Shown here piece after piece: positions 6,442 through 62,710 of a stretch of DNA of 64,000 nucleotides (positions are counted from its first letter, which is position 1; each line of letters begins with the position of its first letter). The position numbers and the translations under genes were made by a program. The notes beneath the pieces were generated by a model. The model saw only the letters and a program-made list of their open reading frames with translations, was not told the DNA's origin and ran no database searches. Source of the stretch: Candidatus Altiarchaeota archaeon. Lineage in GTDB: Archaea; Altiarchaeota; Altiarchaeia; IMC4; SCGC-AAA252-I15. The stretch covers positions 64,001-128,000 of the forward strand of contig JAZDMS010000010.1 in assembly GCA_043800705.1 (NCBI GenBank). The letters are read 5' to 3'.

Positions 6442-6527
6442 CGCGCAGAGGGCTACCCCCTCATTTTTTTGGATTGTAGGCCCCCCTTTTTTTAGCGAGT
6501 TTCGTCGTAAGGCAGCTCCAACCTTTC

Positions 6528-6648
6528 GGATAACATTGGGATTAAGCGAAGTCTGCGGAAGGACTGTCTATTCCTGACGTTTGCGCAGATTTGGGGCGCA
6601 GAGCACCCGACAAGGGTCCGAATGCGCCCGCTTAATCCCGCGTTATCC
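6528..6648 (-). repeat. attC-like integron recombination site 1
   Basis: Minus strand GGATAAC-5nt-ATTAAGCG...CGCTTAAT-6nt-GTTATCC; 121 bp, downstream of a cassette ORF. Confidence 0.8.
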
Positions 6649-6697
6649 GACCGAGCCCGACAAGGGCGAGGCTTGAGTTTTCGAACTGCCCCTATAC

Positions 6698-7075
6698 TTA
6701 GATAGTTATCTTTTTTTCGATTTTAATATTTTCTCCAGCGTGAGTCTTGATGATGGTATTGAATTCATCTAAATCTTTTGTTATAAGATTTGTCCGCATA
6801 TATGCAACTTGACTGCTTTCTCTTGTTAACTTCAAATCATATGGTCTCATTCCCCCATTAGATAAAAAGACACTACGAAGGATTTCTATTTTATCAAAAT
6901 CTTTCCACGCATAGAATTTATCTGGTTTGATACAATGAATTCCAGTAGAATAAACTTTAAAATATGGTTCAAACGGTTCAAAAATAAAGTTTGTTTGTAA
7001 TAACACTCTAAGTATGTTGTGCTTCTTAGGTTTATCTTCATAGACTAAACTGCCACGTTCTTTTACATCTATCAT
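6698..7075 (-). CDS. Gene cassette 1, hypothetical protein
   Basis: 125 aa AT-rich ORF between attC sites. Confidence 0.7.
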   Translation of the reverse strand: MIDVKERGSLVYEDKPKKHNILRVLLQTNFIFEPFEPYFKVYSTGIHCIKPDKFYAWKDFDKIEILRSVFLSNGGMRPYDLKLTRESSQVAYMRTNLITKDLDEFNTIIKTHAGENIKIEKKITI

Positions 7076-7125
7076 GTAGGTTATTGCAATTTCATTAAAA
7101 AGAGTTGTCTGGCAGCTCGAAAATT

Positions 7126-8335
7126 GATACTATGTAGGGTTCTTGCCTTTTGCCGTGTAATGCGGCTAAAGGAGGAGTATTAAGGAGTATTATGGAGAAC
7201 CCTACGGTTTATCTTGGATGTGATGCGCATAAAAAAGAGTGCGTTTTCTGCGGTTTGAATGAGGAAGGCAACCGTGTTTGGGAGGGTAAAACGCCCACAT
7301 GTTTGGCGGGATTCGAGTTTGTCAAAGGCAAACTCGAAGGCTATATTGTCAAAGTCGTGGTTGAGGCGGGAGGTTTCGTGTGGAAGATTACGGACTTATT
7401 CTCGGAGGTCGGTTTCCAGGTGTACGTGTGCAACCCCTCAAAGAATCCCCAGATCGGTTTGAGCAGGAAGAAAACCGATAAAGAAGATGCATTTAAGTTA
7501 GCTGATCTGCTTCGGGCGGGGTATTTGAAATGCATCTATATCCCCACGAAAGAGCAGAGGGAGTTGCGGTCTGTAAGCAGGGACAGGCATAGTCTTGGTC
7601 GATTGCGGGGTAGGCTGTTGACTCAGGCACGCACTGCATCGTATGAGCATCAGATAGAACGTCGCAAAAGGATCATTGAATGCGTAGATGATGAAATCAA
7701 GAGTCTGAAAAAAGAAATAACAGCGAATGCCGGGAAAAATCCGAGCATTCGGCTTTTAGACTCAACTCCTGGAATAGCGGAGTACGGGGCTAACCTAATC
7801 GTTGGGGAAATATGCACTATAGACCGGTTCCCCACCTGCAAACAGTACATCGCCTACTGTGGGCTGGTGCCGTCGGTACGTCAGTCGGGGAATACCTTGC
7901 ATCTGGGTGCGATAAGGAAGGATTCCAATCACCGGTTGAAGTGGGTGTATACCCAGTCTGCTTGGATAGCGGTAAGGTGGAATCAGGAACTCAGAAGATT
8001 ATACGATCGGAAAGCTCGGGAGAGGGGGAAGAAGAAGGCGATTATTGTTGTGGCGAAGAAACTCGCCACAAGGAACTATTGGATGCTCAAAGAAAACAAA
8101 ACATACCAGGAACTGGTAGCCGCTTTTATCCGAATAGGCTAATCAAGCCTTACAGATTGTTTGCGGATCAGATCCCTGGACGGATCAGTACAGTAGGCTA
8201 ACCAAGCCTGAATGGTTGAATGTCGGAAGACGACTCACAAAGTACTGACCACGAAAAAAGAAACAAGTAAAATTCTGGAAGGTCTTATTATAGCGGCAGC
8301 CCTATACACATACCAGGCAAGAACCCACATGGTTT
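7126..8335 (+). mobile_element. IS110/IS1111-type insertion sequence A
   Basis: Subterminal IRs ATGTAGGGTTCTTGCCT (7132-7148) and AGGCAAGAACCCACAT (8315-8330); TT at both junctions; non-coding region downstream of the transposase. Confidence 0.8.
7150..8142 (+). CDS. IS110-family DEDD transposase/recombinase (likely start ATG 7192)
   Basis: GCDAHK, VVEA, KTDKEDA, PGI, YCGLVPSVRQSG. Confidence 0.95.
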   Translation: MPCNAAKGGVLRSIMENPTVYLGCDAHKKECVFCGLNEEGNRVWEGKTPTCLAGFEFVKGKLEGYIVKVVVEAGGFVWKITDLFSEVGFQVYVCNPSKNPQIGLSRKKTDKEDAFKLADLLRAGYLKCIYIPTKEQRELRSVSRDRHSLGRLRGRLLTQARTASYEHQIERRKRIIECVDDEIKSLKKEITANAGKNPSIRLLDSTPGIAEYGANLIVGEICTIDRFPTCKQYIAYCGLVPSVRQSGNTLHLGAIRKDSNHRLKWVYTQSAWIAVRWNQELRRLYDRKARERGKKKAIIVVAKKLATRNYWMLKENKTYQELVAAFIRIG

Positions 8336-8336
8336 C

Positions 8337-8454
8337 GGATAACATGGCAGGTAACCGAAGTTCGCCGAAGAAACGTCGCCAGACTGACAATTGGGCGAAT
8401 TTGGGGAACCACGGACCCGCAGGCAGAGAATTCCCGCTTAGCCGTACGTTATAC
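8337..8454 (-). repeat. attC-like site 2
   Basis: Plus strand GGATAAC...CGCTTAGCCGTACGTTATAC, same branched architecture as site 1. Confidence 0.75.
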
Positions 8455-8517
8455 GAGGCGAACCGCAGTGAGCCCGAGCCCCTGAAAGGGGCGAGCGTGC
8501 CTGCCAAGTTTTTTTTG

Positions 8518-8988
8518 TTATTGTTTTAGTTTGATATACCCTTCAATTAGTCTTAGGACTTTTACTTCTCCTTCCCTGTTTAGTGGTTTTTGGACGTATT
8601 CATTTGCGCCAATTCTAGGTCTCTCTTCATCTGACGGTAGTCTACCTGACAACATTATTACTACCTGGTCACCGTTGGATGTTTTCTTTATATCTGGAAT
8701 AACAGTATCCCCAGACATTCCTGGCATTTCTCTATCACACACTACAACATCATACTTCTTTGGGGAGTACTTTTCAAGACCATCCATACCGTTAGCGGCT
8801 AAATCAACATCCCAACCTTGTCGCACCATAATCATTTGGAGTCGATCACGCAATATCTCATCATCATCTATTAAAAGAATCTTTGGTTTACTCACTCTGG
8901 CACTTAAATGTGGTTGGAGTTGACGCACCTCTCCTAAGCTTATCTTATCTGCTAAAGGATTTCTGGTTGAAATATGCTGCGTGACCAT
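8518..8988 (-). CDS. Gene cassette 2, stand-alone response-regulator receiver protein
   Basis: ILLIDDDE, VVCDREMPGMSG, LSG, YVQKP. Confidence 0.9.
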   Translation of the reverse strand: MVTQHISTRNPLADKISLGEVRQLQPHLSARVSKPKILLIDDDEILRDRLQMIMVRQGWDVDLAANGMDGLEKYSPKKYDVVVCDREMPGMSGDTVIPDIKKTSNGDQVVIMLSGRLPSDEERPRIGANEYVQKPLNREGEVKVLRLIEGYIKLKQ

Positions 8989-9214
8989 GTTATTAGATAT
9001 AATAATGAAAACTATTTAACTTGGCAGGCATGTCGTATAACATCGCGGGTAAGCGAAGTTCCCGCGATGGACTGCCTCTGACCCACTTTTGGCGGGAATT
9101 TGGGGCGCCGCGTACCCGGCAAGGGATCACGAACGCCCGCTTAGCCGCATTCCTTAGAACTTTTTCTTTTGGCTGTGTGTTTACATTTTATTAGTCCTCT
9201 ATCTTATTAATCTT

Positions 9215-9364
9215 TTGAGGGCATGGGGCTGTTCCACAATCGTTCCTCGGCGCTCACTGGGCGCAATTTGGTAAGTGGTAAACGGAGCCCCCAATCACGT
9301 TACAGAAGCTTCAGCCTCGGGTGAGGTTGGCTTAGCGGCTAAACGGGGGTGCCCGTGCCCTCAA
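9215..9364 (-). ncRNA. Predicted bridge RNA/seekRNA of IS B
   Basis: Closing stem TTGAGGGCAYGGG; two internal loops carrying matches to the attC target and to the IS circle junction. Confidence 0.75.
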
Positions 9365-9386
9365 CTGAAGTAAAGAACTTAATCTT

Positions 9387-10376
9387 TTATGCCACCTCCC
9401 TGTATGGTTCCTGGTTGGTGAGCATGTGCCAGATGATGGTCGCCATTTTCCGGGCGGTGCTTCTTCTGGCGGTTTGCATGCCTTTTCTTTTTTGGATTTT
9501 GTAGTAGTGTTTCATGAATCTTGTGTCGATTGTTGCAGCTTTCCCGGAGGATTCGTAGAGTATCCATTTGAGCCATTTGTTGACTGCGTGTTTTTCTACG
9601 GTGTGTTCTTTGCTGCCGGATTGGTAGATTCCGGGGCATAGTCCGCAGTAGCTGATGAGGTGTTGGGGTGTTTTGAATCGTTTTATGTCTCCGATTTCCG
9701 CCAGGATGAACAGGGCTGAGTATTCAGCTACTCCGGGCAGGCTCATCAGCAAACTTGTTTGATGGTTGCTGCGGCTTATTTTTTCTATCCGGTTTTTGGC
9801 TTCTTGTTCTTCGGCGTGTACGGTGTCGTAGACGTTCAGGAGGTTGGTGGTGTTCTGGTCCTGGTTTTGTTTTTTGAAGGCTGTTAGCATCTTTTTTGTC
9901 CAGAGGTTTTTGGGGCAGGTTTGACCTTCCCGAATGAGATTCGTCTTTATTTTGGTTTTTACCTGTGTTTGTATCCTGGTTATGCTGCTTTTGTGTCTGC
10001 ATAGGTCTCGTAGTTTCTGTGTTTCTTCGCCGGGTATGTAGACTTCGGGCAGGTAGTTGGTTCGCAGCAGGTCTGCGAGTATTTTGGCGTCGCCCCAGTC
10101 TGTTTTTTTGTTTGCGGCAAGTTGGTGTGTTTTTAGGGGATTAGCTAGTTTGACTGTGTATCCGAGTGTTGTTAGGTTTCTGTATGCTGGTCGCCACATT
10201 CCGCAGGCTTCTACGGCTACTGTCAGATGGGTGTTAGGTATCCCTGTCACGAACCGTTCAACAGCGTCTTTTCTGGCGGGGAATTCATTCTCCCGAACGA
10301 CTTTTCCCCTGGCATCCATGATGCACCCGGTGTACTTTTCCTTGTGTATGTCCAACCCGCAAAACAACTGATCCAT
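9387..10376 (-). CDS. IS110-family DEDD transposase/recombinase
   Basis: GLDIHK, AVEA, KTDWGDA, LPGV, YCGLCPGIYQSG; SD GGAGGTGA ahead of ATG 10376. Confidence 0.95.
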   Translation of the reverse strand: MDQLFCGLDIHKEKYTGCIMDARGKVVRENEFPARKDAVERFVTGIPNTHLTVAVEACGMWRPAYRNLTTLGYTVKLANPLKTHQLAANKKTDWGDAKILADLLRTNYLPEVYIPGEETQKLRDLCRHKSSITRIQTQVKTKIKTNLIREGQTCPKNLWTKKMLTAFKKQNQDQNTTNLLNVYDTVHAEEQEAKNRIEKISRSNHQTSLLMSLPGVAEYSALFILAEIGDIKRFKTPQHLISYCGLCPGIYQSGSKEHTVEKHAVNKWLKWILYESSGKAATIDTRFMKHYYKIQKRKGMQTARRSTARKMATIIWHMLTNQEPYREVA

Positions 10377-10506
10377 ATTTTTCACCTCCCCGGGGCTTAT
10401 AGACGGTAATAAGCCCCATAATAAACTATTTGCCTAAAGAAAAAGTTCTACTACCATCACGTTATGCGCCCCTGGGCGACAAGCCCAGGGTTCGAAGCCC
10501 AAAATA

Positions 10507-11121
10507 TTATTCTGTAAAAGAATGATTCAAGATATAGTCAGCTGGCAATACTTTCGACTCATCTTCATTATACCAGAAGCACTGTTTTTGTTTGCTATAG
10601 AAAGAGCTATTCATGTTGCAGCATATATTACAGCAAACATAGGAGTGATCAGGGATTTTAGTGACATAAAACTTTTTGAAGGTGTCATATCCGTCTTTTT
10701 CAAATTCACCAAAGAAACCCGTTACGTTAAACGGTTTAGCTCCGAAATACACTAATTTGCTGGTTTCCCTAGTCAGGCAGTTATCTGTTTTCATGTCCCA
10801 GAGGATGACGTCGTTATCCGCAAATGTGCAACTTTTGAATTTCGACTTTCTTGCTACTGCTGTTATATTCTCAATTCCAGCAGAAATTGTTTCAGTCCTA
10901 TTCGATATCCTTATAGGATACTCTTCAGAGGGTTCACAATTGAAGATATACCATCCATGGTAGTCGATAACTTTAGGGATCAAAGATAAATTCACTTGAA
11001 TAGTACTTGTAGAAATTGAGGATAATCTATGTGTCGTTGAAGTAATTCCTTGATTTGTGTCCGAACCAATACACCCACAAAAGAGTAATACCAGGGTTAA
11101 TGAAGGCAATATTTGATTCAC
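10507..11121 (-). CDS. Gene cassette 3, Cys-containing predicted lipoprotein
   Basis: LVLLFCGCIG lipobox-like N terminus, Ser/Thr linker, AT-rich. Confidence 0.7.
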   Translation of the reverse strand: MNQILPSLTLVLLFCGCIGSDTNQGITSTTHRLSSISTSTIQVNLSLIPKVIDYHGWYIFNCEPSEEYPIRISNRTETISAGIENITAVARKSKFKSCTFADNDVILWDMKTDNCLTRETSKLVYFGAKPFNVTGFFGEFEKDGYDTFKKFYVTKIPDHSYVCCNICCNMNSSFYSKQKQCFWYNEDESKVLPADYILNHSFTE

Positions 11122-11203
11122 ATTTATCTATACATCCTCTAGCAATAAAATCGTTTGGGTCGTTTGGGCTTCGAAAGTCAGTTCGCCGCAGCGAGCCGAT
11201 TGC

Positions 11204-11326
11204 GCATAACATTGGGGCTAAACGAAGTCCGCCGAGGAAACGCCGCCAGAGTGACTTTTGGGCGGATTTGGGCAACCACGTACCCCGACAAGGGGCAGAG
11301 AATTGCCGTTTAGCCCTGCGTTATCC
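11204..11326 (-). repeat. attC-like site 4
   Basis: Plus strand GCATAAC-ATTGGG-GCTAAACG...CGTTTAGC-CCTGC-GTTATCC; 123 bp. Confidence 0.8.
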
Positions 11327-11401
11327 GACCGAGCCCGGCAAGGGCGAGGCAAGCCCCTCCAAAAGGAGGGGCGTAGAGTCGCGGAGGGGCAATAGTTCTT
11401 A

Positions 11402-40317: not shown

Positions 40318-43227
40318 CTATCCTGTCGAGGTGGCATTCGCCGGTTGCCTGTCGAATCCTTCATAGCTGATCTCGTATGAGCGCACAAAACCGTAGCTGA
40401 ACTCGCCGTCTGGCGTCCCGTCGCCGTCGTAGTCGGGTATCTGCCTGAAGTGCAGCAGCGGCTTCACTTCCCGTGTGTACAGCCCGTACCTCCTGTATTC
40501 GTCGAGGTATTTGCCGAGGTACAGCCTCGTCGTCATGAAGTCGTTGAACTCCTGGGGCACGTAGACGAGCGTTTTGAACTGCGGCAGATTGCATATGCTT
40601 CCCCTCGGCAGGCTGTTCCAGTTCAGGGCGCAGTAGAGGATGCTCGGTATCTCCTCTTCCTCGTTTACGCGAAGGAGGGGCTGTACCCCCAGGAGCGAGG
40701 CGTCGTTGGCCTTGCTCCACTTGTCCCACGGTATGTGGTTGCCGTAGGGGTCGACCGCTGTTATGCCCCTTATCCCGCTGCCTTCGAGCTCGAATATGAC
40801 GCCTGAAACGTACCCCTGGCACCCGAAAACGACCTGCCTCACCTTGGAGAAGCTGCCGTTCTGGGAGACCGATATCCGCTCTTCGAGCTGGCTCTGTGCC
40901 GGGAGGAACTGGCACTCTGCGTAGTTCTTCCAGGAGCCGGGAGTCACGTCCTCTATGTTGCCTGTGGCGATGAAGTGCAGGGCGCTTCCCTTGCCGATCA
41001 TCGTCCAATCGATGGCCGCATACCTGAGGCCCCAGCTCTGGTTATAATCCCTGTAGGCCTTGTCGTACGCCTTGACCATCTCGAACGCCTCCTCCTCCGA
41101 CGTCTTGTTCTCGAAGAACGTCGCCACGTCCTGTATCTCGTAGTAGTCGGCCTGGAGGTTGTCTATGAGGACTGGCCTGTGGGAGACTGCCGTAATCCAG
41201 TGGCCGTAGTCCCACCACGTGAGTATGGCGTCGCCGGGGCCCGTATTGTTCGCGTGCCATTCGAGCATCGGGTACCAGTAGAATATGTCCTCGGTGGGGC
41301 CCATGTGGAGCACGACGTATCCGACGGCCTTGGAGTAGAGGGCCGGGCCGAACATGGGGACGTAGGCGATTGGGATGCATATGACGAGGATCGTGCCTAT
41401 GATCCTCAGGCTTTCGAGGTCGCTTTTCTTTATAGTTGAAAACAGGCCTATTGTGGCCCCCAATGCGGTTATCGACGCGCTTGAGGCGAATATCCAGGCG
41501 CTCTTGTTGTAGGCACCCCACATCATCGGGATGCTCCATGTCAGGATGAAGAGGGCGCCGATGCTGCCTGTAGAATATACGATGTAGGCCATCAGCGGTA
41601 TGGTGATGATGGAGTACAGGAGCGCTATCCCATACCTATTGTATCCCTGGGTGAGGAATTCGTTGAATGATGAGGCGAGCGGGTTCTGTTCCGCGACCGT
41701 CTGGTGGACTACGCTCTTATCCTTTGCAGAGAGTATCACCTGGGCCGCGAAATCGACGAGGTCGGTGGGCGTCTTATAGAACGCAAGGATTATCCCCGCA
41801 AGTATCAGCGCGACTATGCCGAGGGCGATGACGTTCTTCTCTATGGCGTCCACTGTCCTGTCCTCGATGGAAGCCCCTCCCGTGAGCTGCATGCCCCTGC
41901 TTTTCACCCTTATCATCTCCAATATGAGGGAGAGGCATAAGGTCGCCGCTATGGGGTAAAGCTCGTTCGGGGACATCGAAGGGAAAATCCATGCACCGCC
42001 CCTGGCATGCACCATCGTCCCCATCAGGTTGTATACGATGACCGGTATCAGTATGTACGGCAGATGCTCTATGGCGTTCTTGTTGTGTGCCAACCTCACG
42101 AAGGCATATAATGTGCCGAACGTGCCTATCGTCATCATGGCGTATGCGCTGCCAGCCCAGCTCATCCTGAGCATCAGGGCGGCAATGCCGGTCAGGAGCG
42201 CATACCTGAAGCTCTTCCTCTGATATGAGGCGAAGAAAAGGAAGAGGGTGGCAACCATGAGGAACATCCCGAAGGAGTCGTCTTCTGGGTTGGTGGCCGT
42301 GGCGTTCGCCGCAAGAGCCGGGCTCAGCATGAGCATGAACGCGGCAAGGAGCGCCGCCAACTTGTTGTACGGCCTCATGTCCGAGAACATCTCCTTGACG
42401 AGGAGGTACATGACGACGACCGTCAGGGCTGCTAGTATCCCCGGGAAGAGCATGGCGACCTGAAACATGGAGACGCCGAGGGGATCCAGGGCCAAGGCGA
42501 GCCCCGTGTAGCTGATCTGCATCATCATGGGGGAATCCGATTGTACGAGGCCGAATGTGGTCGGCCTCTGGCTCGTGTATGCCAGGTCCGAGCTGTGGCT
42601 GAGCCCCCCGTACATGGGGTACACCAGCGGGTCGTATTCCGGCGGGTAGCCAGTGTTGTATATGACCTGCATCCACTTGTAGTGCCAGTATGAGTCAAGG
42701 TTAGCCAGCAGGTTGGCGTTGGCGGGGACCAGGTGCAGAAGGAGCGCCGCGAGGAAGAGCGCCAAGACCATGGAAAACTCCACGTTGACGACCTTGTGGT
42801 AGCTCAGCGCATAGAATAAGGCGAAAATCGCCGCCATGATGCTGAAATAGGGGTAATCGACGTTCTGCGGATACCCGTATGCGTTCGAGTAGTATGAGAA
42901 CACCCCCGAAATGAGTATGAGTATCGGTATGCCCCAGCTCCACTGGTCCGACCTCAAAGCCTGCTGGCTGAAGACGGCATAAGCGCTCAGGATCCCGAGC
43001 ACGATCAGCATCAGCGGCCCGCCGTCGTAGAAGAAGCCGCTCGTCATCGGCTTGATGCATGCAAGGGTCAGTGCGAGCAGAGCCGCCAGAAGGAGGGGTT
43101 TGGTGAACTGGCCGAAGACTCCTTCGAATGCGCCGAGGGAGAGCGTTATCGACTGACTGTCGCCTTCCGGATCGGTTATCTTATCCCCCGGCGTATCCCG
43201 CGCTTTTTTAGAAGAAGCCATCCTCAT
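40318..43227 (-). CDS. aglB: Oligosaccharyltransferase AglB/STT3
   Basis: LDSYWH, TVAEQ, WWDYGHWI, many TMs; start near 43222-43227. Confidence 0.92.
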   Translation of the reverse strand: MRMASSKKARDTPGDKITDPEGDSQSITLSLGAFEGVFGQFTKPLLLAALLALTLACIKPMTSGFFYDGGPLMLIVLGILSAYAVFSQQALRSDQWSWGIPILILISGVFSYYSNAYGYPQNVDYPYFSIMAAIFALFYALSYHKVVNVEFSMVLALFLAALLLHLVPANANLLANLDSYWHYKWMQVIYNTGYPPEYDPLVYPMYGGLSHSSDLAYTSQRPTTFGLVQSDSPMMMQISYTGLALALDPLGVSMFQVAMLFPGILAALTVVVMYLLVKEMFSDMRPYNKLAALLAAFMLMLSPALAANATATNPEDDSFGMFLMVATLFLFFASYQRKSFRYALLTGIAALMLRMSWAGSAYAMMTIGTFGTLYAFVRLAHNKNAIEHLPYILIPVIVYNLMGTMVHARGGAWIFPSMSPNELYPIAATLCLSLILEMIRVKSRGMQLTGGASIEDRTVDAIEKNVIALGIVALILAGIILAFYKTPTDLVDFAAQVILSAKDKSVVHQTVAEQNPLASSFNEFLTQGYNRYGIALLYSIITIPLMAYIVYSTGSIGALFILTWSIPMMWGAYNKSAWIFASSASITALGATIGLFSTIKKSDLESLRIIGTILVICIPIAYVPMFGPALYSKAVGYVVLHMGPTEDIFYWYPMLEWHANNTGPGDAILTWWDYGHWITAVSHRPVLIDNLQADYYEIQDVATFFENKTSEEEAFEMVKAYDKAYRDYNQSWGLRYAAIDWTMIGKGSALHFIATGNIEDVTPGSWKNYAECQFLPAQSQLEERISVSQNGSFSKVRQVVFGCQGYVSGVIFELEGSGIRGITAVDPYGNHIPWDKWSKANDASLLGVQPLLRVNEEEEIPSILYCALNWNSLPRGSICNLPQFKTLVYVPQEFNDFMTTRLYLGKYLDEYRRYGLYTREVKPLLHFRQIPDYDGDGTPDGEFSYGFVRSYEISYEGFDRQPANATSTG

Positions 43228-43916
43228 CTGCCGTATCTGCGTTCCCTGCTTGTGTAGTCCTGGATGACCTTCTTGAGGTCCTCCTTGTCGAATTCCTGCC
43301 AGAGCTTGGGGATGAAATATATCTCGCTGTAGGCGGACTGCCACAGGAGGAAATTGCTCAGCCTGTCCTCGCTCGTCCGTATGATGATGTCCGGGTCGCC
43401 CTTCACCCAGAGGTTCCCGCCGAGGTTCTCCTCGTTTATCTCCTGCCCCTGTTCGATCATCTTCCTGACCGCGTGGATTATCTCCTGCCTCCCACCGTAG
43501 GCGATAGCCAGGTTGAGCTTGAACTTATCGTATCCTTTCGTGGCCTCCTCGAGCCTTTCCATGTTGGCTACCATCTCGGCAGCCAGCTCCCTGTTGACTT
43601 CCTGTTTGCGGAGGAACTCCCTGTCGCCGCAGAGGCTGACCCTGACCTTATTCTCGTGCATGCTCTTGTCCGAGAGCCCCTTAAGGGCGTGCTTGTTGAA
43701 GGCCTTGAAGAGCGTCTCTATCTCCTTCTTGTTCCTGCTCGTTATGTTCTCTGTGGAAAGCGCGTAGAGCGTGACCTCGTCGACTTTGAGGTCGTAGCAC
43801 CACTCCAGGAAGTCGTAGAACCTGTTGATGCCCAAGTCATAAGACACAAGAAGGTCGCCTATGCCCCTCTTGGCCATGAATCTCCTGTTCCCGTCCGGAA
43901 TCAAGCCTATATGCAT
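43224..43916 (-). CDS. uppS: cis-prenyltransferase (polyprenyl diphosphate synthase)
   Basis: HIGLIPDGNRR, YALSTEN, YGGRQEI, RLSNFLLWQSAYSE. Confidence 0.95.
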   Translation of the reverse strand: MHIGLIPDGNRRFMAKRGIGDLLVSYDLGINRFYDFLEWCYDLKVDEVTLYALSTENITSRNKKEIETLFKAFNKHALKGLSDKSMHENKVRVSLCGDREFLRKQEVNRELAAEMVANMERLEEATKGYDKFKLNLAIAYGGRQEIIHAVRKMIEQGQEINEENLGGNLWVKGDPDIIIRTSEDRLSNFLLWQSAYSEIYFIPKLWQEFDKEDLKKVIQDYTSRERRYGR

Positions 43917-48130: not shown

Positions 48131-49972
48131 ATGTCCCTCGATTACAAGAAGCTCGGCTTCAAGTGCGGCATCGAGATCCATCAACAGCTCGACACCCACA
48201 AGCTTTTCTGCGACTGCCCGTCGGCCGCCCGCGACGACAAGCCGGACATCACAGTCGAGAGGAAGATGAGGGCCGTCGCCGGAGAGCTCGGAGACGTCGA
48301 CCCCGCGGCGCTCCACGAATTCCTCAGAAACAGGACGCTCGTATACGAGGCCTACCGCGACACCACATGCCTTGTGGAACTCGACGAGGAGCCTCCTCAT
48401 CCCCTCAACCTGGGCGCGCTGAGGACCGTCCTCGAGGTCGCGTTCCTCATGGAGGCCAAGCCCGTCGACGAGCTCCATGTCATGCGCAAGACCGTCATCG
48501 ACGGCTCCAACACGAGCGGATTCCAGCGGACGATGCTCGTCGCGGTCGACGGCGTACTTCAGACGAGCGAAGGCCCCATCGGCGTCCCCACCATCTGCCT
48601 CGAGGAGGACGCCGCCCGGATAATCAGCGAGGACGGCGGCAAAGTACGCTACCACCTCGACCGCCTCGGCATCCCACTCATCGAACTGGCGACGAGCCCC
48701 GACATCAAAAGCCCCCAGCACGCCAGGGAAGTCGCCGAGAAGATCGGCGGCATACTCCGCTCAAGCCAGGTGAAACGCGGCCTCGGAACCATCCGCCAGG
48801 ACCTCAACGTATCCATAGCGGAGGGGCAGCGGATAGAGGTCAAGGGGGTCCAGGACCTCCGCCTCATATCGAAGGTCGTCGAAGGCGAGGTCGAACGCCA
48901 GGCCATGCTCGTCGAGGCGAAAAAGGAGCTGGCAAGACGCGGAATCAGGGAGAATGACTACGACCGAGAGCCCGCAGACGTCACGGACCTGTTCAAAGGC
49001 ACGCAGTCCGCGGTCGTAAGGAAAGGCCTAGAATCCGGCGGGATAGTCCATGGCGTTATCCTGAAGGGGCTCAAAGGCCTGCTGAAAGGAAGGCTCGGCC
49101 CGCAGCTGGCGCAGTACGCCCGCGCCATGGCCGGCGTCAAGGGGATATTCCACGGAGACGAACTGCCTGCCTATGGGATAAGCCCAGCGGAAGTCGATGC
49201 GGTGATGAAAAGGCTCGACGTATCCGGAGACGACTCATACCTCCTGGTGGCCGGAACCACGGAACAGGCGAAGAAAGCGCTAGATGCGGTCCTCGGCCGC
49301 TGCAGGAGCACTTTGGCAGGCGTACCGGACGAGGTCCGCCGAGCGAAAGACGACGGATCGACGGAATACATGCGGCCCCTCCCTGGCTCGAAGAGGATGT
49401 ATCCCGAGACCGACGAGCCGCTTCTCCCGTTGGACTCCTCGCTCCTGAAGGACGTGTCCTCGCATCTGCCGGAGCTTCGCGAAGACAAGGCGAAACGGTA
49501 CATGGAACTCGGCCTAGGCGCCGAAATGGCGTCCCAGATATCCCGCTCGAAGGAGGCCGGGCTCTTCGAGGAGCTGGCCGGCGAATTCCCGAAAGTGGAA
49601 GCCACCCTCATTGCGCAGACTCTGACAGCCACCCCCAAGGAGGCTGAGAAGAGGTACAAGGCGGACGTGGCGAAGCTCACAGTCGAACACCAGAGACAGA
49701 TCCTCCGGCTCATTTCAGAAGGCCGCATATCCAAGAACGTCGTCGCGGAACTGATGGCTAAGGTGTGCGAGAACCCCGGCGACCAGGTCGAGAAGTCCGC
49801 GGAAAAAAACAGGCTCACAACCCTCACCGACGCGGAACTGAAGGCGGTCATCGCAAGGCTGAAGACCGAAGACCCGAGACTTCAGGGCGCCCAGCTGATG
49901 GGGAAGGTCATGGCCGAGACCAAAGGCAGGGCGGACCCGAAAAAGGTGGGCGAATTACAAAACTCAGGCTAA
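48131..49972 (+). CDS. gatE: Glu-tRNA(Gln) amidotransferase subunit E
   Basis: GIEIHQQL, MRKTVIDGSNTSGFQRT, RGLGTIRQD, RMYPETD. Confidence 0.97.
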   Translation: MSLDYKKLGFKCGIEIHQQLDTHKLFCDCPSAARDDKPDITVERKMRAVAGELGDVDPAALHEFLRNRTLVYEAYRDTTCLVELDEEPPHPLNLGALRTVLEVAFLMEAKPVDELHVMRKTVIDGSNTSGFQRTMLVAVDGVLQTSEGPIGVPTICLEEDAARIISEDGGKVRYHLDRLGIPLIELATSPDIKSPQHAREVAEKIGGILRSSQVKRGLGTIRQDLNVSIAEGQRIEVKGVQDLRLISKVVEGEVERQAMLVEAKKELARRGIRENDYDREPADVTDLFKGTQSAVVRKGLESGGIVHGVILKGLKGLLKGRLGPQLAQYARAMAGVKGIFHGDELPAYGISPAEVDAVMKRLDVSGDDSYLLVAGTTEQAKKALDAVLGRCRSTLAGVPDEVRRAKDDGSTEYMRPLPGSKRMYPETDEPLLPLDSSLLKDVSSHLPELREDKAKRYMELGLGAEMASQISRSKEAGLFEELAGEFPKVEATLIAQTLTATPKEAEKRYKADVAKLTVEHQRQILRLISEGRISKNVVAELMAKVCENPGDQVEKSAEKNRLTTLTDAELKAVIARLKTEDPRLQGAQLMGKVMAETKGRADPKKVGELQNSG

Positions 49973-61764: not shown

Positions 61765-62710
61765 ATTTCCCCTTCAACTTCATCCTTACATTTCGTATTA
61801 TGTTCTCGCCCTTTTTGGTTTTAAGGTTTATACCGCTTTCACATTCCCTGAGGAACATCTCCTTGGCTCTTTTCCCAACGTCCGGGGAGCCTATGTGTAC
61901 TCCGCCGATGATATCCTCTCTGTTGTCTCTGATGTAAAGAAACACATCTATTGGCTGGATTTTCTCCGGGAGGACAAGATCTAAACCGAAAAGCCTTTCA
62001 GTATATACTATATCCACATTGTCCATTTTCCTAAGTTCGCACAGATTTTCTATCGTCTTCTGGCATTCGAGATATGCTAAACCGGGATTCTTGTATGTTT
62101 GTAAGGCCTGGTGATAGAGGTAATCTATGTCCAAGTTGGTAAGGTATTTGGCTTTTAGTCTTTTCTTGAAACAGCCGTCGTATATGGCTTTAACGTATTC
62201 CGCTCTTCCGATTCCGGCAAGCATTGTCGGGGTATATGAAATTTTTGCGAATTTTCCGACAACATAGTGGACCTTTGCGACCCTGACTAGTTGGGCAAGT
62301 TTATGGTAAAACTGGTCATATTCCAGATATTCGACAACTGGTTTAAACTGACTTACTTTTATCCTCGAAAAATACGCATCCACCTCGTCGACAACCTTCT
62401 CAAATTCAGAAATCTCCCTATATCTCTCCTCTTTTTTCTGCCTTAACGTCTTTTCTACAAAATCAAAATCGACCTCGTAGCATGCATACTCCGTTTGTTT
62501 AATGTGTCCCTTGTTTTTCAGTAATCTAAGAACGTTAAAGAGGTTCGGTTTCATAAGATGCTTCCCCCTAAGTTTTCTATACTCCTCTTGTATCGCCTTG
62601 GGTGCGGCAACTATTCCCCTCTCATGAATCTGATAAACGCATTGTAGAATATCGAATTGCTGGGGTGTAAGCCCTAATCCCTCTGAAACCATCTTTAAAT
62701 CAAATTCCAC
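61748..62710 (-). CDS. TrmB-like regulator, paralog B
   Basis: Aligns end to end with paralog A. Confidence 0.7.
   Translation of the reverse strand: MEFDLKMVSEGLGLTPQQFDILQCVYQIHERGIVAAPKAIQEEYRKLRGKHLMKPNLFNVLRLLKNKGHIKQTEYACYEVDFDFVEKTLRQKKEERYREISEFEKVVDEVDAYFSRIKVSQFKPVVEYLEYDQFYHKLAQLVRVAKVHYVVGKFAKISYTPTMLAGIGRAEYVKAIYDGCFKKRLKAKYLTNLDIDYLYHQALQTYKNPGLAYLECQKTIENLCELRKMDNVDIVYTERLFGLDLVLPEKIQPIDVFLYIRDNREDIIGGVHIGSPDVGKRAKEMFLRECESGINLKTKKGENIIRNVRMKLKGKYGRFS

Follow-up and report, generated by a model that had tools for sequence, protein, structure and literature searches.

Positions 9150-10457 on the minus strand of a 64,000-nucleotide (nt) stretch of contig JAZDMS010000010.1 from a Candidatus Altiarchaeota archaeon (this whole stretch is called the window, and coordinates refer to it) hold an insertion sequence (IS) of the IS1111 type. 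It encodes a DEDD recombinase, and its long right end contains a non-coding region with the layout of a bridge RNA or seekRNA. We assign this region to the IS1111-type bridge/seekRNAs because of the transposase family, the architecture of the element, the non-coding position, the order of the guides and the covariation of guides and flanks among homologues. We conclude that the element is an archaeal IS1111-type IS whose recombinase is most likely guided by a two-loop RNA of about 150 nt made in the sense of the transposase gene, a reading to which we give a probability of roughly 85%. The element has the following parts.

9150-10457, minus strand: whole IS1111-type IS, 1308 nt, its ends placed from about 70 homologues with common terminal motifs
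9387-10385, minus strand: open reading frame (ORF) of the transposase/recombinase, 332 amino acids (aa) from a GTG at 10385, with a probable ATG start at 10376 (329 aa)
10432-10457, minus strand: left end, from the inverted-repeat match; 7-nt terminal extension (10451-10457) and subterminal inverted repeat (10432-10450)
9150-9173, minus strand: right end, from the same match; 5-nt terminal extension (9150-9154) and subterminal inverted repeat (9155-9173)
9215-9364, minus strand: bridge/seekRNA-like non-coding RNA gene in the long right end, from its fold and its conservation in 75 of 104 related loci
9335-9344, minus strand: target guide 1 on the 5' side of loop 1; its partner is the right flank's top strand, comprising the core G and 9 nt of an attC L box
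9296-9303, minus strand: target guide 2 on the 3' side of loop 1; it has the left flank's sense and pairs with the bottom strand there (R box plus core TG)
9269-9274, minus strand: donor guide 1, 5' side of loop 2, pairing with the top strand of the left-end extension
9241-9247, minus strand: donor guide 2 on the 3' side of loop 2; it has the sense of the right-end extension and core and agrees with them at 6 of 7 positions

The transposase contains the domains PF01548 (DEDD_Tnp_IS110, E = 6.2e-23, residues 9-150) and PF02371 (Transposase_20, E = 1.6e-19), and the string GLCPGIYQSG in its translation fits the motif GL-P----S(t)G described for IS1111 transposases (PMC11187229). Its matches among Protein Data Bank sequences are the transposases of ISCro4 (E = 5.9e-13) and IS621 (E = 1.3e-11), and in a tblastn search it was at most 32.6% identical to any of the best-scoring 5000 of 72,556 plasmid records. 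The subterminal inverted repeats at 9155-9173 and 10432-10450 are 19 nt long, 95% complementary and situated 5 and 7 nt inside the IS ends. Published IS1111 elements have subterminal repeats of 7-17 bp (PMC11208160), with extensions outside them of 7 (or 6) bp on the left and 3 bp on the right (PMC11187229); the left extension found here has the published length of 7 nt, and the right one measures 5 nt against the published 3, a value that depends on the repeat end chosen. The non-coding ends comprise 72 nt upstream of the GTG on the left versus 237 nt downstream of the stop codon on the right. Hallmarks described for IS1111 elements are that the left end is short, that the right end is long and carries an RNA gene, and that the subterminal repeats are long (PMC11187229; PMC11208160). 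A preliminary description of this locus, made from the sequence only, had already called the transposase IS1111-type, in agreement with the two domains, the 19-nt repeats and the unequal ends.

On the plus strand, the element is bordered by ...GCTTAGCCGCA up to 9149 and by CACGTTATGCGC starting at 10458; in the orientation of the element, the left flank terminates in ...CATAACGTG and the right flank opens with TGCGGCTAAGCG. There is no target duplication, and the dinucleotide TG alone is common to both junctions. In DNA contigs from two public sequencing runs, the match of related copies to the window ceases at 9133/9137 and at 10465 and other sequence follows; one of these flanks resembles another attC-like site of the family present in the window (see below). 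The left end also holds a hairpin directly upstream of the ribosome-binding site (10392-10417, minus strand, GGGGCTTAT ... ATAAGCCCC). Homologues retain it with other letters (AGTGCTTAT ... ATAAGCACT), and it could serve translation control or recognition by the transposase protein.

Read on the minus strand, the RNA gene begins and ends with the arms of an outer stem (9352-9364 and 9215-9227, 13 nt, 92% complementary) that enclose two loops. Loop 1 consists of CCCCC (9349-9345), GTTTAGCCGC (9344-9335), an inner hairpin, TAACGTG (9302-9296), ATT and GGGGG (9292-9288). Loop 2 consists of CCAC (9278-9275), TTACCA (9274-9269), a GC-rich hairpin, AGGAACG (9247-9241), ATT and GTGG (9237-9234). The closing helices are CCCCC/GGGGG for loop 1 and CCAC/GUGG for loop 2. 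The minimum-free-energy fold of the minus-strand RNA recovers the outer stem and both loops, with fold z-scores that are modest on the minus strand (-54.2 kcal/mol, z -1.87) and on the plus strand (-69.3 kcal/mol, z -3.32). Rfam gave no match at gathering score across the whole window and only chance-level hits for 9100-9450 at E values up to 10. This RNA-like region downstream of the transposase and its two-loop layout had been put forward in the preliminary description; all the strings and coordinates given there were found in the sequence, and the fold reproduced the layout.

The two sides of loop 1 read the two flanks of the insertion. Over all 10 of its positions, target guide 1 pairs with the right flank's top strand (one pair being G·U), and its position is the single best right-flank pairing site in the 1308-nt sense transcript; a 10/10 match occurred in 9 of 2000 shuffled ISs. 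For target guide 2, the best left-flank bottom-strand site in the transcript, all eight positions pair (7 Watson-Crick, 1 G·T), a score reached in 259 of 2000 shuffles. Exact 7-mer matches to the target within the IS (5, against a shuffle mean of 2.4 and a maximum of 12) had no significance. The guide-flank match is suggestive from the window alone, and it gains its significance from the homologue comparison. Loop 2 reads the ends of the element itself: donor guide 1 forms five Watson-Crick pairs and one G·U by inspection, and its combinations with the left end obey the pairing rules in 69 loci, while donor guide 2 agrees at six of seven positions. It had been claimed beforehand that the loop-1 guides match both target strands and that loop 2 fits the IS circle junction less perfectly, and these counts bear out both.

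For the homologue comparison, 440 transposase relatives were found at E <= 1e-30 among 1347 candidates; two are 93% and 88% identical to the window transposase and the others at most 62%. A scan of the genome contigs with the single protein returned no relative, and an alignment-based scan succeeded. Loci were taken from alignment-based scans as the best 80 of 120 confirmed on genome contigs and the best 80 of 230 confirmed on metagenome contigs. The RNA scaffold is kept between the stop codon and the right end in 75 of the 104 regions examined, which are those that could be parsed; the 29 unparsed regions (no anchor, more distant, or cut by contig ends) are outside all counts.

Guides and flanks were compared in a set with one locus per distinct guide-1 sequence and both flanks present (n = 34). 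Guide 1 forms on average 7.18 Watson-Crick pairs out of 10 with the right flank of its own locus and 3.84 with the flanks of other loci, and guide 2 forms 5.29 out of 8 versus 3.60. None of 10,000 permutations gave a sum as high as that observed, for guide 1 and guide 2 alike. Covariation of guides with insertion sites had been suggested beforehand as a check of RNA guidance, and across these 34 guide types it is found. Each distinct guide is a separate retargeting. Among the guide groups that agree with their own flank, one reads the tRNA-like GTTCAAATC and another GCGGGTCTT; agreement is also kept by the altered guide of a copy in the window's genome that has lost its transposase (on contig C4, see below). 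Within the lineage of the window element, identical half-sites flank the independent insertions in L097 (91% identity, in a different attC-like site), in L098 and in a second copy at a contig edge of the window's genome. In the tabulated loci, the core at the left junction is almost always TG, and the first base of the core at the right junction is mostly T, about ten loci having A, G or C instead. These junctions would fit an exchange to the left of the core, in which the donor supplies the left core and the target the right one.

Some further observations concern these homologues. Guides that read GTTCAAATC(C) belong to a monophyletic group of 16 transposases in a quick tree, with a support of 98 in the approximate likelihood ratio test of Shimodaira-Hasegawa type (SH-aLRT): L016, L018, L024, L109, L124, L125, L130-L132, L137, L141, L142, L148, L151, L154 and L173. 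The flank of this group continues with CCTT and resembles the T-arm end of a tRNA gene. The transposases of L014 and L015 are nearly identical (branch lengths 0.0035 and 0.0045) and come from metagenome-assembled genomes (MAGs) titled Dehalococcoidales bacterium and Methanobacteriota archaeon, so that the pair represents either cross-domain spread or mis-binned contigs. In L099, whose element is a 92%-identical relative of that in the window, another IS110-family element (1110-1500, ORF start near 1173) lies within the right-end subterminal repeat, which gives a nested pair of probably RNA-guided ISs.

The inner parts of the RNA are conserved as helices. Of 68 distinct RNA sequences, 57 were aligned; L015, L105, L106, L108, L129, L134, L155, L156 and L168 were left out as near-copies and L024 and L026 for long insertions. 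In the loop-closing stems and inner hairpins, 97.3% of 1136 cells are paired, versus at most 49.7% with slid partners. Double changes occur in 19 cells, versus 2.4 in shuffles, and none of 500 shuffles scored as high.

On this basis the following mechanism can be proposed. The long right end would give rise to an RNA of about 150 nt that has two internal loops and the sense of the recombinase gene. Loop 1, the target loop, would use its 5' arm to pair on the right of the insertion point, with the top strand (core G and L box), and its 3' arm to pair on the left, with the bottom strand (R box and core TG). Loop 2, the donor loop, would read the abutted ends of the excised element, that is the 7-nt left extension followed by the 5-nt right extension and the core. 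By bridging both DNAs, the RNA would direct recombination to the TG core; this core lies near the 5' end of an attC-like site, where a spacer of 2-3 nt separates the R box from the L box. The product would lack a target duplication. Beyond the anatomy, pairing, guide-flank covariation across homologues and helix conservation that we observe, we infer that the RNA is made, protein-bound and needed, that a circular intermediate forms and that the window copy is active.

Several points weigh against this interpretation. Firstly, the loci are kin to each other, and the permutation count is no true probability. The fit between guide and flank is poor in L020, L129, L126 and L161, with 2, 3, 4 and 0 of 10 Watson-Crick pairs; in L161 the right end was probably mis-called. 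Secondly, the outer stem, although conserved, is without compensatory changes in the 57 sequences (477 Watson-Crick, 11 G·U and 14 A·C cells). At its sixth pair the window lineage has an A-to-C change, which produces a C·A mismatch. The same A-to-C change is compensated by a U-to-G change just 3' of loop 1 (AU 50, CG 4), in an alternative pairing that extends the loop-1 stem and is favoured by RNAalifold. A three-way junction, formed by an outer helix that is short (nine pairs, all perfect, in the window) and by lengthened loop-1 and loop-2 stems, is therefore as likely as a single long outer stem. Of the outer stem proposed in the preliminary description, the 13-nt arms are present, reproduced by the fold and conserved, and the 57 homologues offer no covariation for it.

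Thirdly, the plus-strand (antisense) transcript of the window surpasses the sense transcript in both folding energy and z-score (values above). It could be that the region produces a plus-strand RNA, for example a regulator of the 3' end of the transposase mRNA, or acts as a right-end DNA hairpin recognised by the protein; the flank matches would then be a property of that molecule. By symmetry, complementary guides are present on either strand, and the outer-stem mismatches of the window lineage become G·U pairs on the plus strand, so the caution about the strand voiced with the first description was justified. The homologues nevertheless point the other way. In the loop-1 closing helix of the 57 homologues there are 47 G·U versus 6 A·C cells in sense orientation, and one pair of this stem is G·U in 27 of the 57 sequences, a pair that the opposite strand would have as C·A. 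Where guide 2 meets DNA, 27 wobble pairs are counted in sense versus 6 in antisense. In the donor guide, among 69 loci, UUGCCA occurs with ATGGTAG (G·T) 25 times and UUACCA with ATGGCAG (A·C) not once. Published seekRNAs are located after the stop codon of the transposase gene (PMC11187229). The asymmetries in the homologues and this published position are our reasons for taking the transposase-sense strand, which the comparison favours, and they make an antisense RNA or a DNA hairpin very improbable.

Lastly, the 87.6%-complete assembly contains only one complete copy of the element, donor guide 2 of the window lineage has a C where the junction core has a T, and a joint of a circle or an empty site was not found in DNA contigs of four runs, whose uncovered parts are uninformative. 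The element could be an IS1111 IS of the proposed kind whose copy in the window is a relic, with guides that are fossils of the last insertion. The other copies in the genome would suit a relic. A transposase-less RNA gene with right end (L003 1505-1700, contig C4 about 62397-62596) is 78% identical to the window; its loop-1 letters differ from those of the window and its 5' guide fits its own right flank, and it may be a relic itself or a non-autonomous element. A 50-nt right-end remnant (92% identical) is present at L004 about 1500-1545 (contig C37 3734-3783), and a further copy is broken by a contig end. Moreover, in the three intact attC-like sites of the window the core TG is replaced by TA, CA or CG and the L box differs, which leaves few good targets. 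Against a relic stand the intact transposase ORF with both domains, the inverted repeats that are 95% complementary and the target guides, which both still pair fully with the flanks. The motif AGGAAUG occupies donor guide 2 in 68 of 72 parsed homologues outside the window lineage, and the C is found in the window, L097 and L099; its retention in L097 and L099 at other locations, together with CG as the right junction of L097, indicates that the C may be tolerated or functional. We consider a relic unlikely and retain an active RNA-guided element as the preferred reading.

The host is archaeal, as had been assumed in the preliminary description. The best-in-clan matches of the small- and large-subunit rRNAs of the genome are archaeal, and the window encodes GatE at 48131-49972 on the plus strand (TIGR00134, 637.9 bits, cut-off 319.55), which is an archaeal enzyme. 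The window also has a weak match to an archaeal STT3-type oligosaccharyl transferase at 40318-43344 on the minus strand (90.3 bits, cut-off 450). The insertion interrupts one of several attC-like palindromes, which are located as follows.

10458-10470, minus strand: left target half-site, the R box of the interrupted attC-like site (from the flank sequence)
9031-9149, minus strand: right target half-site and remainder of the interrupted attC-like site (family profile, nhmmer E = 8.4e-31, listed as 9031-9150)
6524-6656, minus strand: uninterrupted attC-like site of the same family (nhmmer family profile)
8333-8461, minus strand: uninterrupted attC-like site of the same family (nhmmer family profile)
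11200-11334, minus strand: uninterrupted attC-like site of the same family (nhmmer family profile and single-strand folds)

The family comprises six near-identical palindromes of about 130 nt in the genome, four in the window and two on contig C37, all ending in ATAAC ... GTTAT. These ends fit the type of the attC R box, whose consensus is RYYYAAC / GTTRRRY. In single-strand DNA folds (11192-11330, both strands) the palindrome forms an R helix, an unpaired spacer of 2-3 nt, an L helix of 10-11 bp and a variable top. The right half-site of the interrupted palindrome holds the L box, the variable part and the L and R boxes of the far arm. The four sites in the window share one orientation within 4.8 kb (6524 to 11334). 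In each of the three gaps between them, the longest ORF is on the minus strand, encodes 125-204 aa and covers about 80% of the gap's sequence outside the two ISs located there; one of these cassette ORFs is a response-regulator receiver. Given these three ORFs, the array reads on the minus strand. The 50-nt remnant mentioned above lies about 1.1 kb from the two sites on contig C37 (1762-1897 and 2479-2610), and these two sites amount to another small attC-like cluster in the genome. A conserved hairpin (CCCTGGGCGACAAGCCCAGGG) separates the cassette ORF from the R box at two different occupied sites of this genome, at 10470-10492 in the window and at about 150-172 in L002.

Alternatively, the target repeats could be another palindromic intergenic family, similar to repetitive extragenic palindromic (REP) sequences or miniature inverted-repeat transposable elements, and not integron attC sites; the RNA-guided IS would stand in this case as well. 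No integron integrase exceeds the TIGR02249 cut-off in the 87.6%-complete assembly, and the best match (87.9 bits vs a cut-off of 265) is a 283-aa Xer-like protein on another contig. The palindromes are a single sequence family with only six genomic copies, their single-strand fold z-scores are weak (-1.4), and the IS1111 relative ISPa11 is reported to target REP sequences (PMC11187229). On the other side, each site combines the ATAAC...GTTAT boxes, the 2-3-nt spacer, the 10-11-bp L helix, the variable top and a length of about 130 nt, and relatives of the window IS occupy similar palindromes in other MAGs. Archaeal integrons have been recognised by at least two attCs less than 4 kb apart (PMC9668308), and the window has four same-orientation sites within 4.8 kb, at such distances and with one minus-strand ORF per gap. 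Most archaeal attC arrays are likewise without an integrase (PMC9668308). We therefore call the targets attC-like, by their anatomy, and judge another palindrome family to be rather improbable. The attC identity given in the preliminary description is in part sustained, by the palindrome anatomy and the cassette-like array, and in part left without its integrase.

The IS has entered the attC-like site near its 5' end, at the spacer that separates the R box (read by guide 2) from the L box (read by guide 1); the earlier proposal of a recombinase aimed at the L/R arm agrees with this position. In the far arm of the occupied palindrome the alignment reads a different spacer that lacks TG, which would explain why insertion has a single orientation. 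By a simple palindrome test, 8 of 35 guide types lie in attC-like sites, two of them with the arrangement of the window (the window itself and L097, both at the R/L spacer). In the other six, called type A, the element lies the opposite way round with respect to the R and L boxes, and the R box is read by guide 1; in five of the six loci the right flank, on the R-box side, has as its longest ORF one that runs antisense to the transposase. Bacterial IS1111-attC elements are described as inserted near the attC 5' end and antisense to the cassette array (PMC3001079). The window and L097 conform to the fixed insertion point near the 5' end; the window transposase has the minus strand in common with the three cassette ORFs, so that the element lies in the sense of the cassettes and departs from the antisense rule of the IS1111-attC group. 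A quick tree of 62 transposases with midpoint root places the window and L097 together on a long branch of their own (SH-aLRT 100) and the type A loci in another clade (SH-aLRT 95), which suggests two separate acquisitions of attC-like targets. Since the transposase is at most 32.6% identical to its best plasmid matches, it is unlikely that the window element belongs to the bacterial IS1111-attC group (ISPa21/ISPst6).

A second IS110-family element is present within the array at 7130-8335 on the plus strand. Its 330-aa transposase (7150-8142; PF01548 and PF02371) shares 30% identity with the first. The element has inverted repeats of 11 nt near 7138 and 8318, is non-coding for 190 nt downstream of the transposase gene and ends exactly at the R box of the attC-like site at 8333. 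Its 3' region folds no better than shuffles (z -0.60), and guides were not found in it.

RNA guidance of IS110/IS1111 elements was established in 2024 (PMC11208160; PMC11187229). Bridge RNAs were predicted in 93% of the IS1111 elements in ISfinder (PMC11208160), and 662 archaeal IS110 recombinases have been catalogued (PMC11213020). The closest functional counterparts of the window element are those that target attC: for ISKpn4 and ISPst6 co-purification of the RNA is reported, and for ISPa25 an equivalent is predicted (PMC11187229). They have in common with the window the IS1111 architecture, the RNA downstream of the transposase gene and the attC-end target (PMC11187229), with insertion near the attC 5' end (PMC3001079). 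The order of the guides, with the top-strand match 5' of the bottom-strand match, is the same in the window and in the seekRNAs of ISEc11, ISPa11 and ISKpn4 (PMC11187229). The window element differs from ISKpn4, ISPst6 and ISPa25 in its archaeal host and its cassette-sense orientation, theirs being antisense (PMC3001079). Association of RNA and protein has been demonstrated for elements of the ISKpn4 group, whereas the window RNA is predicted from its sequence. The distance of the window transposase was gauged against the best 5000 plasmid records (at most 32.6% identity).

Like the window element, ISEc11 has an essential non-coding region downstream of the transposase gene that yields an RNA of about 150 nt with target matches, and ISEc11 and ISXne4 exemplify natural retargeting by guide letters as seen among the window homologues (PMC11187229). 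ISEc11 differs by its linear target and by a sequence unrelated to the window at a detectable level. IS621 likewise uses target and donor internal loops, each reading both strands around a common core dinucleotide (PMC11208160), and as mentioned above its transposase is a detectable sequence relative (E = 1.3e-11). In IS621, however, the RNA is in the left end upstream of the gene, the order of the guides is reversed and the subterminal repeats are 2-3 bp (PMC11208160). Many IS1111 RNAs carry their donor guides in a multi-loop (PMC11208160), whereas the donor loop of the window is a simple internal loop similar to that of IS621. ISPpu9 of Pseudomonas putida, also of the IS110 family, is described with a small-RNA gene (Ssr9) downstream of the transposase gene and inserts in palindromic repeats, and its extra RNA-gene copies without a transposase are comparable to the C4 copy in the window genome; it differs in being bacterial and in targeting REP sequences. 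The target array resembles the archaeal integrons and clusters of attC sites lacking integron integrases, that is integrase-less attC clusters in archaeal MAGs (Ghaly et al. 2022, PMC9668308). The words 'transposase', 'insertion sequence' and 'IS110' do not occur in the main text of that study, whose supplements may list IS insertions. A literature search of titles and abstracts, which does not extend to supplements, found no paper on an archaeal IS1111 element in attC sites.

The mechanism and the attC-targeting of bacterial IS1111 elements are already known, and the window element is an additional member. What is new here is modest. The element belongs to a distinct, mostly archaeal clade (at most 32.6% identical to plasmid-borne relatives) whose RNA has no Rfam model, and one lineage enters attC-like sites opposite in orientation to its relatives, in the sense of the cassettes and in an archaeon. 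A broader claim would be that this is the first described integron-targeting RNA-guided IS of archaea, within a large, mostly archaeal IS1111 clade that has a compact RNA with two simple loops and was re-aimed many times, at tRNA-like sequences, at other repeats and, twice independently and in opposite orientations, at the R/L spacer of attC-like sites. Taken as a whole we hold this claim only tentatively, with somewhat more doubt than confidence.

The value of the finding lies in material rather than principle. At least 440 related recombinases from archaeal and sediment metagenomes come with a short conserved two-loop RNA, and about 35 natural target guides with known insertion sites form a natural programmability table for an archaeal bridge-type recombinase. 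For the biology of the host, the locus indicates that archaeal attC-like cassette arrays are parasitised in an RNA-guided way, like bacterial integrons. The flipped orientation of one lineage bears on the mobility and expression of cassettes; if true, an element inserted in cassette sense could keep the recombination site silent or drive the cassette that follows.

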